Below are positions 12,744-47,424 of a DNA stretch of 64,000 nucleotides, piece after piece. Under the pieces are notes generated by a model. It saw only the letters and a program-made list of their open reading frames with translations, had not been told where the DNA came from and ran no database searches. Numbering within the stretch: position 1 is the stretch's first letter; the number at the start of each line of letters is the position of its first letter. Location of the stretch: assembly GCF_056712565.1 (NCBI RefSeq), contig NZ_CM160072.1; one strand, 5' to 3'. Position numbers and translations under genes: made by a program.

Positions 12744-12755
12744 CACGCTACCGCC
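12744..12755 (-). promoter_or_regulatory. ops element (GGCGGTAGCGTG) within JUMPstart, RfaH-dependent antitermination site in the wza leader
   Basis: Plus strand reads cacgctaccgcc at 12744..12755, i.e. GGCGGTAGCGTG on the wza strand, ~180 nt upstream of the wza start. Confidence 0.75.
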
Positions 12756-12968
12756 CCTGGCTTTTTAGCTACCAATACACTGATTTAGCTTAATTTTTAA
12801 AACCCTCTCAACATACAGTCGTTGATGAGAAAGGGTTATTGCGGAAATTAACTTCCGAATATAAGGTGACATTATGGTAATTGAATATTGGCTCTCCAAT
12901 AATGCAGGAGGAAGTGTTACAGCTAACGGAATAGCAGGCAAGGTAACAATTCGGCAATTGGCTATTTT

Positions 12969-24834: not shown

Positions 24835-26784
24835 TCAGCAGCGGCTTAAATCAGCCTTCGCCTGAGCCAGTTTTTCTGCCGCCTGACGTAGCGGCTCCAT
24901 CAACGGCATGGTCCGTGCTGGAGCATGAAGGCGGAATCGCTGCAACTCTGTCGCACCGACAGTCAACGCCGATTCCAGCCGATGTCGTTTGGCGGTCATT
25001 TTCGCCATTACCGCTTGTCTGTCTGCTGGCGTTACCGCTTCATTCGGCCTGAACACAAAACGGCGTTCGCAACTCGCTTTCCAGTCGATAACCGCCTGGG
25101 TCAGATGATCACCAAAACCTTTTACTTGCTTAACGCTCCGTCGGGTAACGTCTGCCGCCGTTTCAATACCAAAGGACCGTAACGCCGCTTTACGCGCAGG
25201 GCCAACGCCGGGAATAGAGGCAACATCAATAAAAAATCCCTCCAGAAACTTCTGCTTCTGCCGTTCCCTTGCGGTGTCCTGAAGTGCTGCCAGATCGCGC
25301 TTTTCTTCTTCCGGTAACCCAAGAATTTCGTCCTTCATTTTTTCGAGCCTCGCCCGTTTGGCGATAAAACCTTCCAGCCCGCCCAACTGCTGGATCTGGC
25401 TGACTAAATGGTCATAGTCCATTTTCGCGCGATTAAACGCCTCACGGCGTTGCTGGATTTCTGCTTTGTACGCTTTGCTTGTCAGGCTGCCAATAATCCA
25501 GATAGCCGCCAGCACAGGAATCAAAATAATATAACTCGGTTCTGCCTGAAGGCCGCAAAACAACAGCGATAACGCTGACAGTGCGATCTCAATCAGAATG
25601 ATGTATTCGCGCCGTAACAGGCCTAAAGGAAGCGACCTGCCAGTCGGTTGGAAATGATCGGGTAATGGCAATTGCAATGCTGGCGGTGCTACTGATGCCA
25701 TCACCATCGCCCAGACTCTCGCCAGCACAAAATCACCGCCGGTGGTAATGACCTCTTCACCGAGATCAATAAAATAGATAACGCCTTGATTATCCAGCGC
25801 ACACCACGGGCAGTCAGTCAAATGAGCGGGGTAAACATGCATTGCCGAAACGGTACATTTCTTTAACTGTTGGCGTAGTAAATCAAGTGCCGCTACCCAC
25901 GCTTTTGCCGTCGGACGCCCGGTTGCCACGCCACTTTCCGTGAATGCCTGCTGAAACATGGCTTCAACATCGCCCGGTAACATCGACAGCGGAATCGATC
26001 GTGGCGGCGGTTTTAAACCACGTCGCTGATTATCTGAGGCGTAGGCATAACGGAAATGGGCAATATCCGTCTCCAGCGCATTACCTGCATCAGAGATAAG
26101 CGGTACACCGGAATAAGGATGCCGCCCACCAAACAAGATGTGAAATATCAGCAACGCAAGGCCAAAATTATCGTGATTTTCTGTGCGTTCAAAGCCGACA
26201 AATGATGGCATGGTTTGCAGCTCTGGCGGCGTAAAATGCGACACGCCGACTTCGCATAAATGCAGTGTACCATTGGCATTAATCTGAAAGGAGTCGCTAT
26301 CAATCAACACCACTTTGCTGTCGCGACCTACCATAAAGCTGTTCTGGTTTACGTCACCCACGACGTGCCCGTGCTCATGAACAGTAGCAAAAGATGAAGC
26401 AATATTGCGCGCAACATAGAGTAGAAAATCCCACGCACAATGAGGGTAACTCTGGCGACGATGTGCCGGGCTATAGATCATATGAATCGGTTCTTTACCA
26501 GAAACTTTTGGCATCATAAAACCGATAACTTTTCCGCCTCGTCCACCGTGAAGCGTTGCCTGCGGCCAGGCGACATAATTCAACAACTGCGCGTCAGCTG
26601 TCGCAGCCATAAAGGCAAGTTTGTCCTGTTTTAAGGCGGGTGGCGGCGTGTGATAAATCTTGGCGACGCTATCGACAAACTCCTCGATATCATAAACCGC
26701 ACCTTCGCCGCCTTTGCCCAGTTCACGGCCAGGCGTAACGCACTCACCAGTAGCAGTATATAAAGTGGGTTTCATGGTAACCAC
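24835..26784 (-). CDS. yegI: Ser/Thr protein kinase-like protein YegI
   Basis: 649-aa ORF; kinase-like N-terminal half, predicted TM segment, C-terminal helix-hairpin-helix-like region; start may be MKPTLYT. Confidence 0.85.
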   Translation of the reverse strand: MVTMKPTLYTATGECVTPGRELGKGGEGAVYDIEEFVDSVAKIYHTPPPALKQDKLAFMAATADAQLLNYVAWPQATLHGGRGGKVIGFMMPKVSGKEPIHMIYSPAHRRQSYPHCAWDFLLYVARNIASSFATVHEHGHVVGDVNQNSFMVGRDSKVVLIDSDSFQINANGTLHLCEVGVSHFTPPELQTMPSFVGFERTENHDNFGLALLIFHILFGGRHPYSGVPLISDAGNALETDIAHFRYAYASDNQRRGLKPPPRSIPLSMLPGDVEAMFQQAFTESGVATGRPTAKAWVAALDLLRQQLKKCTVSAMHVYPAHLTDCPWCALDNQGVIYFIDLGEEVITTGGDFVLARVWAMVMASVAPPALQLPLPDHFQPTGRSLPLGLLRREYIILIEIALSALSLLFCGLQAEPSYIILIPVLAAIWIIGSLTSKAYKAEIQQRREAFNRAKMDYDHLVSQIQQLGGLEGFIAKRARLEKMKDEILGLPEEEKRDLAALQDTARERQKQKFLEGFFIDVASIPGVGPARKAALRSFGIETAADVTRRSVKQVKGFGDHLTQAVIDWKASCERRFVFRPNEAVTPADRQAVMAKMTAKRHRLESALTVGATELQRFRLHAPARTMPLMEPLRQAAEKLAQAKADLSRC

Positions 26785-27533
26785 AGCGCCAGTGCCAACG
26801 TTTTATCATCATCCGTACGCTCGTTTACCGCCGGGCTGGACAAAAACTGCTTTAACAATTCAGGTAATAAATCGAGTTGTTCCTGCGTTGCTGACGCCAG
26901 TCCATTGAAAAACGGGGTAAAGAAAGGCACATGCGGAGAATTATCCAGCATATTTAACGCCAGTCGCTGAATACCATCCGTAAATGCTGCAACTTTGTGC
27001 GCACGCTCAGTGCTGGTGAAAGTTTCCAGTCTGGAAACGGCATCTTCATCGGTAATGAAGTGCGTCATATTGGTATATTCACCCACCATCGGCGTGAGCG
27101 GCAGTTGCAAACCGTGCCCCAAATCTACCACCACGCCGCCATCGCCAATCTGCATAATCAAGGTGCCATTAGCTGATGAAATCAATCCCAAAAACGTGCA
27201 GGCAAAATCGCGAACCGCTAATTCTTTGGCTTCCGCCTCGGCAAAAAGTCGCTGACGAATGGTCAGCACAATGTCCGTTGCGAGGACATCATTAAGCCCC
27301 AATTCCCCGCCCTGCATTTTTTGCGACATATAAGCCATCGCTTCATTGACGGCGAGCATCGCACCTTCGCCACCCTGCGAGACGCTGCCTGCGCCATCAG
27401 CGACAAATACCGACAATAATGGCTGCTGGTCATTTAGCCAGGCAACCTGCATCTGGCAGGCATCCTGGCAAGGCAAATCAGCGCTAATATGCGACGTTCC
27501 AACGGCTGATGCATAGACCAGTCGCCAGCTCAC
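26772..27533 (-). CDS. pphC: PP2C-family Ser/Thr phosphatase PphC (YegK)
   Basis: 253-aa [29 protein letters not shown]; overlaps yegI start and yegL stop. Confidence 0.85.
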
Positions 27534-28189
27534 ACTGACGTCCAGCCTTTTGGCGCTTCCAGCACAACTTCCGTTCCCGGCGTGGAGCGGGAAACCGAAC
27601 GCAGCGAACTGGATAACCAGCTAAACAGTTCACGGAATTGTAATCCCTGCAGAGACAAAGGCTGACGGACGCTGATTTGGGCCAGCGTCTTCATATCCGC
27701 CCCCTGAACACCGATGGTAAAGAAGGCAAACTTCTTATCTTCTTCCCCCTGAAACACTTTGTTGGCGGCAGCCTGCCACTCATCGGTTGGTGCGCCATCG
27801 GTGATCAGGAAAATCCACGGACGATAATAGGAAATACCATTGGCACGATATTCACGTTTCCGCTCCTCAACCATATCCAGGGCTTTGGTAATGGCAGCGC
27901 CCATTGGTGTATCGCCCTGGGCAAACAGGATGGGCGGGAAAAAATTAGCGGCGCTGGTAAAGGGTTGTTCCACATGCACCGGGCCGAACGTCACAATGCC
28001 GAGTTCCACTCTTTTTAAGGCCAGCGAATCGGCAAGCAGCTCATCGCGAAAGGTAACCAATCCGGTGTTAAGTTCATTAATGGGTCTGCCGCTCATCGAG
28101 CCAGAAACATCCAGCAGCAAAATGCAGGGGCAACGTGGTTCCGGGTTACTGGCAAAATCGCTGGTGGCAAACGTGATTTGTTCGCTCAT
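27530..28189 (-). CDS. yegL: von Willebrand factor A domain protein YegL
   Basis: 219-aa ORF with vWA MIDAS-like motif DVSGSMSG. Confidence 0.8.
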
Positions 28190-28362
28190 AAGAAATCCTT
28201 TCTTAGAGAATTATTGAGGTCCGGTATCATACCGATTGCAATAATGAAATAAGAGCAAACGAAGAAACTTTCAGAATTAGGCCCGGCGGCGCAGAAAATT
28301 TTGCTATTCGCCTCGCAAGAACGGAGAGCCGTCGATTGACACTAAGGGCGGAGTGACATAAT

Positions 28363-28513
28363 TTCAGGAGTGAGGGTAGAGCGGGGTTTCCCCCGCCCTG
28401 GTAGTCTTAGTAAGCTGGCCAGCTAATGACTAAGAGCACCACGATGATGAGTAGCTTCATCATGACCCTTTCCTTATTTAAGGCCCCTTCCTCGGGAGGG
28501 GCTTTCCCGTTTC
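28363..28513 (+). ncRNA. sibA: Sib antisense sRNA, copy 1 (approximate ends)
   Basis: Plus-strand transcript antisense to the ibs ORF, ending at the GC hairpin ggcccc...gggaggggc followed by a short T-run (28481..28513). Confidence 0.45.
28407..28463 (-). CDS. ibsA: Ibs-family type I toxin, 18 aa (MMKLLIIVVLLVISWPAY)
   Basis: Minus-strand ATGATGAAGCTACTCATCATCGTGGTGCTCTTAGTCATTAGCTGGCCAGCTTACTAA, read by hand; too short for the ORF track; A/B assignment is by position only. Confidence 0.7.
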   Translation of the reverse strand: MMKLLIIVVLLVISWPAY

Positions 28514-28690
28514 AGCGTCCCGCTGAAATCTTCGGCTTACCTCCTTTCGCCCTGTATGCAGTCTATCGCTGACTTGCGGATAAAATAGTTTCAAGTGTGA
28601 TTATTGCGTAACGACTCGCAAAGAATATTTGCTGGCAGGATCGCAGACTGCAAAGTCTGCGGATTGACAATTGGACCGTGAAGGCATACT

Positions 28691-28841
28691 TTCAGGAGTG
28701 AGGGTAGAGCGGGGTTTCCCCCGCCCTGGTAGTCTTAGTATGCTGGGTAGCTAATGACTAAGAGCACCACGATGATGAGTATCTTCATCATGACCCTTTC
28801 CTTATTTAAGGCCCCTTCCTCGGGAGGGGCTTTTCCGTTTC
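28691..28841 (+). ncRNA. sibB: Sib antisense sRNA, copy 2 (approximate ends)
   Basis: Second repeat unit; same hairpin terminator at 28809..28841. Confidence 0.45.
28735..28791 (-). CDS. ibsB: Ibs-family type I toxin, 18 aa (MMKILIIVVLLVISYPAY)
   Basis: Minus-strand small ORF within second repeat unit, read by hand. Confidence 0.7.
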   Translation of the reverse strand: MMKILIIVVLLVISYPAY

Positions 28842-28998
28842 AGCGTCCCGCTGAAATCGTCGGCTTATCTCCTTTCGCCATGCAAGCAGTCTATCGCTAA
28901 CGCGTAGATAAAATAGTTTCATGTGTTATTACTGGATGCGTGCTCGCAAATGTGCCCGTCATTCAGACGATTCCCGACAGTGTTTCATAATTCCTCCA

Positions 28999-47253: not shown

Positions 47254-47397
47254 TTAATTTCGATTATTTTTCCCGGATGGAAAATTCTTAGAAACCGATC
47301 ACATACAGCTGCATTTATTAAGGTTATCATCCGTTTCGCTGAAAAACATAACCCATAAAATGCTAGCTGTACCAGGAACCACCTCCTTAGCCTGTGT

Positions 47398-47424
47398 AAT
47401 CTCCCTTACGCAGGCTTATTTTTT
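47398..47424. mobile_element. Probable P2-type att core at the prophage/host junction
   Basis: Reverse complement aaaaaataagcctgcgtaagggagatt matches the P2 att core as I recall it at 25 of 27 positions; lies between yegQ and ogr. Confidence 0.4.

Follow-up and report, generated by a model that had tools for sequence, protein, structure and literature searches.

In the Escherichia coli DNA analysed here, a stretch of 64,000 nucleotides called the window below, the intergenic region between yegL and mdtA carries, with a probability that we put at about 0.93, two tandem Sib/Ibs type I toxin-antitoxin modules. They lie at the site occupied in K-12 by sibA/ibsA and sibB/ibsB and are allelic variants of that pair. 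Neither the family, its members here nor the locus is new, and RefSeq already annotates both modules. Sib RNAs are cis-antisense antitoxins of about 140 nt that cover the whole ibs ORF and its translation initiation region, and Ibs peptides form a transmembrane helix. The assignment draws on the sequences and their ORFs, on covariance-model membership, predicted folds and synteny, and on the existing annotation.

Over its 881 nt the intergenic region is 100% identical to that of E. coli DSM 30083 (= ATCC 11775), the type strain, and 5,419 of 5,426 complete E. coli genomes match it at lower identity. In the RefSeq record of ATCC 11775 both ORFs are labelled 'type I toxin-antitoxin system Ibs family toxin' (WP_100249772.1 and WP_012767742.1), with yegI-pphC-yegL upstream of the pair and mdtA-mdtB downstream; these flanks verify the placement between yegL and mdtA that had been proposed in a sequence-only reading of the window. 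That reading had also called the arrangement a known one, rightly: K-12 shares the locus and the order of its genes, with ibsA and ibsB, and the alignment with K-12 that it had called for recovers the sibA/ibsA-sibB/ibsB locus, with other alleles in the window. In the window yegI, pphC and yegL follow one another directly, with overlaps, on the minus strand (24835-28189), whereas in K-12 the plus-strand gene yegJ is annotated beside pphC. The kinase-phosphatase-vWA cluster seems to differ here between the strains.

A single direct repeat family with two copies spans positions 28334-28950. Each copy is 289 nt long (28334-28622 and 28662-28950), the two are 88% identical, and their starts are 328 nt apart. 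The unit of about 235 bp estimated earlier was thus too short. The interval first given for the pair, 28355-28925, does include the copy 2 Sib promoter (-35 at 28664), but the copy 1 promoter (-35 at 28336) begins just before it. The units contain the following features:

28336-28364, plus strand: putative sigma-70 promoter of sib copy 1, read from the letters, with -35 TTGACA (28336-28341), a 17-nt spacer and -10 TAATTT (28359-28364), within positions 1-30 of the Rfam model.
28372-28511, plus strand: Sib copy 1 RNA of about 137-140 nt, ends predicted from the RF00113 match, the SibC alignment and the fold.
28407-28463, minus strand: ibs copy 1, 18 aa, MMKLLIIVVLLVISWPAY, from translation and the RefSeq CDS WP_100249772.1.
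28480-28505, plus strand: Sib copy 1 terminator hairpin in the predicted fold, 11 pairs with the loop CUCG, followed by UCCCGUUU.
28512-28622, minus strand: remainder of unit 1 within the 289-nt repeat, the presumed ibs-1 promoter and 5' leader, with a hairpin at 28510-28528.
28664-28692, plus strand: putative sigma-70 promoter of sib copy 2, read from the letters, with -35 TTGACA (28664-28669), a 17-nt spacer and -10 TACTTT (28687-28692), within positions 1-30 of the Rfam model.
28700-28839, plus strand: Sib copy 2 RNA, ends predicted from the RF00113 match, the SibC alignment and the fold.
28735-28791, minus strand: ibs copy 2, 18 aa, MMKILIIVVLLVISYPAY, from translation and the RefSeq CDS WP_012767742.1.
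28808-28833, plus strand: Sib copy 2 terminator hairpin in the predicted fold, followed by UCCGUU; a terminator-like call falls at 28813-28829.
28840-28950, minus strand: remainder of unit 2 within the repeat, the presumed ibs-2 promoter and leader, with a hairpin at 28838-28856.

The Rfam scan suggested in the sequence-only reading returns two plus-strand matches to the SIB_RNA family (RF00113, Rfam 15), one at 28336-28478 (141 bits, E 5.8e-30) and one at 28664-28806 (138.6 bits, E 2.2e-29). Both are full length, covering positions 1-147 of the 147 of the model, which places the two RNAs in the family, and both stand about 2.5 times above its gathering score of 56. The model runs from the -35 box of the promoter and ends before the terminator, and the matches cover both ibs ORFs, as expected for the plus-strand Sib proposed to overlap each minus-strand toxin gene. 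At gathering thresholds the scan found no further Sib match in the 64-kb window. It did detect the CyaR/RyeE sRNA (RF00112) at 47336-47421 on the plus strand (100.2 bits) and a JUMPstart element (RF01707) at 12744-12782 on the minus strand (57.3 bits); the latter suggests that the leader of a polysaccharide operon is nearby.

The ends of the two RNAs were placed by alignment with SibC, with the SibC numbering anchored on C107UCCUUC113 and G49CU51 (PMC2943612) and on the K-12 sibC sequence. Sib 1 would run from G28372 to about 28508-28511 and Sib 2 from G28700 to about 28836-28839. In K-12, sibA and sibB start at a +1G and are hence not NAD-capped (PMC12956327); the G found at the aligned +1 of both copies agrees with this. 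The copy 1 promoter is that of K-12 sibA and has the layout of the K-12 sibC promoter, while the copy 2 promoter is 90% identical to that of K-12 sibB and 97.5% identical to the site 2 promoter of strain LF82. The predicted Sib 1 (28372-28511) spans the ibs ORF at 28407-28463 together with its Shine-Dalgarno sequence at 28471-28475, and Sib 2 does the same 328 nt further on, so that the antisense RNA extends over the coding and initiation regions of each gene.

Both RNAs are predicted to fold stably (-60.5 kcal/mol, z -3.7 for Sib 1; -60.4 kcal/mol, z -4.1 for Sib 2, against dinucleotide shuffles) and with the same order of elements: a closing stem, a GC hairpin, a long hairpin carrying in its loop the equivalent of TRD1, a target recognition segment discussed below, a hairpin over the ibs start codons, a single-stranded UCCUUAUUUA segment and the 11-pair terminator hairpin. 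The GC-rich hairpins at 28480-28505 and 28808-28833 correspond to the hairpin that had been described at the end of each Sib, and the terminator hairpin is kept in 14 of the 14 units compared. A scan for consensus promoters and terminators called the copy 2 terminator (28813-28829) and missed the copy 1 terminator and both Sib promoters. K-12 SibC/IbsC resembles the window modules in its closing stem, TRD1 loop, start-codon hairpin, single-stranded TRD2 segment and terminator, and in an antisense overlap that covers ORF and ribosome-binding site. It differs in its locus (fau-serA), in an NAD-capped +1A where the window copies have G, in its TRD sequences and in encoding a peptide of 19 aa.

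Each ibs frame is intact, with 19 codons including the stop and an ATG start, and an AAGGA Shine-Dalgarno sequence lies 7 nt before the ATG in both copies (28475-28471 on the minus strand for copy 1). The translations agree exactly with the two 18-aa minus-strand peptides reported earlier; they had indeed escaped the ORF track, whose listing starts at 20 aa. They also differ slightly from the K-12 peptides, as that reading had stated. K-12 IbsA is MMKHVIILVILLVISFQAY and IbsB is MMKLLIIVVLLVISFPAY; the copy 1 peptide shares 17 of 18 residues with IbsB (F15W) and the copy 2 peptide 16 of 18 (L4I and F15Y). The peptides show the traits of the Ibs family, being hydrophobic and of 18-19 aa, with an MMK/R N-terminus, a Leu near position 11 and a C-terminal aromatic-x-x-Y motif, and K3 and L11 are present in both. 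The assignment to the toxin family, made by likeness, rests on these 16-17 identities out of 18 to IbsB and on the RefSeq annotation. Two other kinds of ORF recur in the repeats, on the plus strand at 28426-28572 and 28754-28900 (48 aa) and on the minus strand at 28478-28594 and 28806-28922 (38 aa). They were rejected as genes: all are by-products of the repeat that RefSeq leaves without annotation, and the 38-aa frames are out of frame with ibs.

How such a module would work can be reasoned from relatives in K-12 and Salmonella, on which all that is said here of expression, toxicity and repression is based. Overproduction of IbsC depolarises the membrane (PMC8309996), and Salmonella IbsA binds the Fo subunits a and b of ATP synthase, whose inhibition makes ATP fall; a basic residue at position 3 and Leu11 are needed (bioRxiv 10.1101/2025.05.26.656083). 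By analogy, Ibs made from the minus strand would insert in the inner membrane, and membrane potential and ATP would drop. The first nucleotide of Sib would be a G some 35 nt past the ibs stop codon, and transcription would end at a Rho-independent terminator beyond the ibs ribosome-binding site; being encoded in cis, the RNA would be fully complementary to the ORF, the start codon and the Shine-Dalgarno sequence. First contact would be made through the TRD1 loop and the single-stranded TRD2 segment, and the pairing of Sib with ibs mRNA would then block translation and trigger RNase III-dependent decay, in keeping with repression by Sib RNAs, in which ribosome binding is blocked and RNase III is involved (PMC4147584). 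The alleles with W15 and Y15 are likewise presumed, from these relatives, to be toxic and to be repressed.

The two modules are so alike that they may work as one. The target recognition determinants of Sib RNAs sit in variable regions (Han et al. 2010, PMC2943612). In SibC, TRD1 (+46 to +68) is a loop that targets the ORF and TRD2 (+99 to +115) is single-stranded and targets the initiation region; either TRD alone suffices for repression, after which pairing spreads, and both must differ before specificity is lost (PMC2943612). The TRD1 equivalents lie at 28413-28435 and 28741-28763 in the window and the TRD2 equivalents at 28463-28482 and 28791-28810. The transcribed cores differ at 5 of 140 positions: 28413, 28419 and 28420 belong to the TRD1 loop, 28454 to the loop of the start-codon hairpin and 28506 to the terminator tail; TRD2 is free of differences. 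Because TRD2 is identical in the two units and either TRD sufficed in SibC, each Sib is predicted to be able to repress the ibs mRNA of the other unit as well as its own. The pair would then form one redundant system in which the deletion of a single sib is tolerated, as has been reported for sibA in K-12. The identity of the TRD2 equivalents, the near identity of the whole cores and the sufficiency of one TRD in SibC all speak for this. Against it, TRD2 function requires a particular structural context, and an 8-nt stretch of the TRD1 loop holds three of the mismatches and the P6 loop a fourth, both being places where Sibs discriminate. We regard the chances of such redundancy as roughly even. 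It refines the explanation by two tandem Sib/Ibs modules and does not compete with it.

Beyond the Sib terminators, the remainders of about 110 nt are 82% identical to each other, and conservation is higher between strains: that of unit 2 is 98-100% identical to the downstream segments of site 2 in K-12 and LF82. The consensus scan of the intergenic region called no minus-strand ibs promoter, and alignment with the ibsC promoter region (-10 TACGAT, deduced from an 18-nt overhang) gave no convincing -10 in the window; the leader of A/B-type ibs genes seems to differ from the C-type leader. The sole promoter-like call in the intergenic region is a sigma-70-like site at 28962-28991 on the plus strand (TTCAGA, an 18-nt spacer and CATAAT), some 80 nt ahead of the mdtA start (29070), a call that is not above shuffle expectation. 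Directly 3' of each Sib terminator lies a perfect 8-bp hairpin (28510-28528 and 28838-28856) of the form TTTCAGCG-TCC-CGCTGAAA, which is kept in 14 of 14 units from six strains. Its only variant, a plus-strand G->A change in O157 site 1 and MIN9 sites 1-3, would keep a G-U pair on the minus-strand RNA and leave an A-C mismatch on the plus-strand RNA, which hints that the hairpin belongs to the ibs leader.

Against the K-12 units the two copies do not line up one to one. K-12 sibB/ibsB shares with both the intergenic region and the unit architecture, and its core is 95-96% identical to theirs; with copy 2 it also shares a downstream flank at 98% identity. It differs from them in residue 15 (F in K-12, W in copy 1 and Y in copy 2), in residue 4 (I in copy 2) and by several synonymous changes in the TRD1 loop. 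Unlike K-12 sibB, the IbsB-like copy 1 occupies the sibA position behind a sibA-type promoter. Its positional counterpart is K-12 sibA/ibsA, with which the downstream flank is 91% identical and the sib promoter identical at 37 of 37 positions, as it is with the promoter of site 1, that of the IbsA unit, in O157 and MIN9. The K-12 sibA/ibsA core, in contrast, is 76% identical to that of copy 1 and differs from it by two 3-nt indels, and IbsA has 19 aa where copy 1 has 18. Copy 1 is thus A-type in promoter and flanks only; it lacks the IbsA-type core (19 aa, MMKHV...FQAY) of an ibsA/sibA orthologue. Both cores of the window are IbsB-like, and the IbsA-type cassette is absent from it.

By these comparisons unit 1 is a mosaic, a sibA-type promoter joined to a B-type core: the core is 76-79% identical to IbsA-type cores, 96% identical to that of K-12 IbsB and 99.3% identical (136/137) to that of the middle one of three units in O176:H45 strain MIN9, a unit that carries the copy 1 peptide. 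Unit 2 has flanks of the site 2 type, and its core is nearest to the site 1 core of LF82 (135/137), not to that of LF82 site 2 (126/137). Depending on the strain, the yegL-mdtA interval holds one, two or three units. In O157:H7 strain 2571 the third unit of a three-unit locus encodes the copy 2 peptide; the O157:H7 and O176:H45 loci keep an IbsA unit in front, whereas the window has two units without IbsA. As far as can be read from such alignments, unequal crossing-over or gene conversion between the tandem units would be the simplest explanation of the mosaic pattern, and one possible route would be a deletion that fused a middle-unit core to the promoter of site 1 within a shared TTTCAGGAGTGAGGGT stretch. 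Of 5,416 matching records, 311 have the site 1 allele, flank and core together, at 99% identity or more; 281 records reach this level over the whole 881-nt region. The identical arrangement occurs in several ExPEC genomes, including NU14, MS7163 and PA45B.

Two or three units are present at yegL-mdtA in LF82, O157:H7 2571, strain 9 and O176:H45 MIN9, with an Ibs repertoire that consists of MMKWIIIVVLLVISFPAY, MMKLLIIVVLLVISYPAY, MMKILIIVVLLVISFPAY and MRKHVIILVILLEISFQAY. The last comes from MIN9 site 1; with M2R and a charged E13 within its hydrophobic core it may, to judge from these substitutions, be an inactive toxin. Seven to eight Sib-like matches were seen on plasmid-labelled E. coli records, although accounts of the family usually place it on the chromosome.

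One or both units might have decayed to relics, the toxin killed by F15W or F15Y or transcription lost, leaving neutral DNA. Every Ibs peptide of K-12 has F at position 15, and the consensus scan recognised no minus-strand ibs promoter, both of which speak for relics. Yet the ORFs, start codons, Shine-Dalgarno sequences, Sib promoters, folds and terminators are intact in the window and the substitutions at residue 15 stay aromatic, and IbsC tolerates many substitutions as long as its hydrophobic centre and C-terminal residues are kept (PMC8309996). Peptides with W15 and Y15, moreover, recur at other sites in unrelated strains such as O176:H45, O157:H7 and LF82, and cores at least 99% identical are found in 890 complete-genome records for copy 1 and in 121 for copy 2. 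We therefore consider decay very unlikely. That the units are generic intergenic repeats with chance short ORFs and no toxin-antitoxin system has practically no probability left: chance short ORFs are common and each unit has its 38- and 48-aa ORFs too, but the covariance-model E values near 1e-29, the identity of the peptides to IbsB, the synteny with a characterised K-12 locus and the RefSeq annotation effectively refute it.

With two tandem Sib/Ibs modules as the reading that stands, the distribution of variation among their relatives allows a more speculative proposal. When 11 B-type cores taken from six strains are compared, 15 columns vary, and 10 of these lie in the TRD1 and start-codon hairpin loop regions, which together make up 30 of the 140 nt (hypergeometric P about 7e-5, a value obtained from a small sample of non-independent units with a loop window defined post hoc). 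This loop-focused variation fits the placement of TRDs in variable regions by Han et al. The yegL-mdtA interval might then be a small cassette array in which near-invariant frames swap cores and variation is focused on the TRD1 and start-codon hairpin loops, toxin residues 4-5 and F/W/Y15 being largely by-products of selection for RNA-RNA specificity. We offer this as a doubtful conjecture, likelier to be wrong than right. If it were true, the pair in the window would offer a natural way to tell insulation of the modules by TRD1 differences alone from cross-protection between them.

The finding itself carries little weight, and the mosaicism and the common TRD2 are minor points. An 18-codon toxin gene and its antisense RNA were recognisable from the raw letters. 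The E. coli type strain has two IbsB-like cassettes and no IbsA-type core, and the apparent exchange of cores between tandem sib/ibs sites matters for how ibs genes are named and counted across strains. With an identical TRD2 and TRD1 equivalents 3 nt apart, the two units form a natural allele pair that could be used to test the published rules of Sib specificity.
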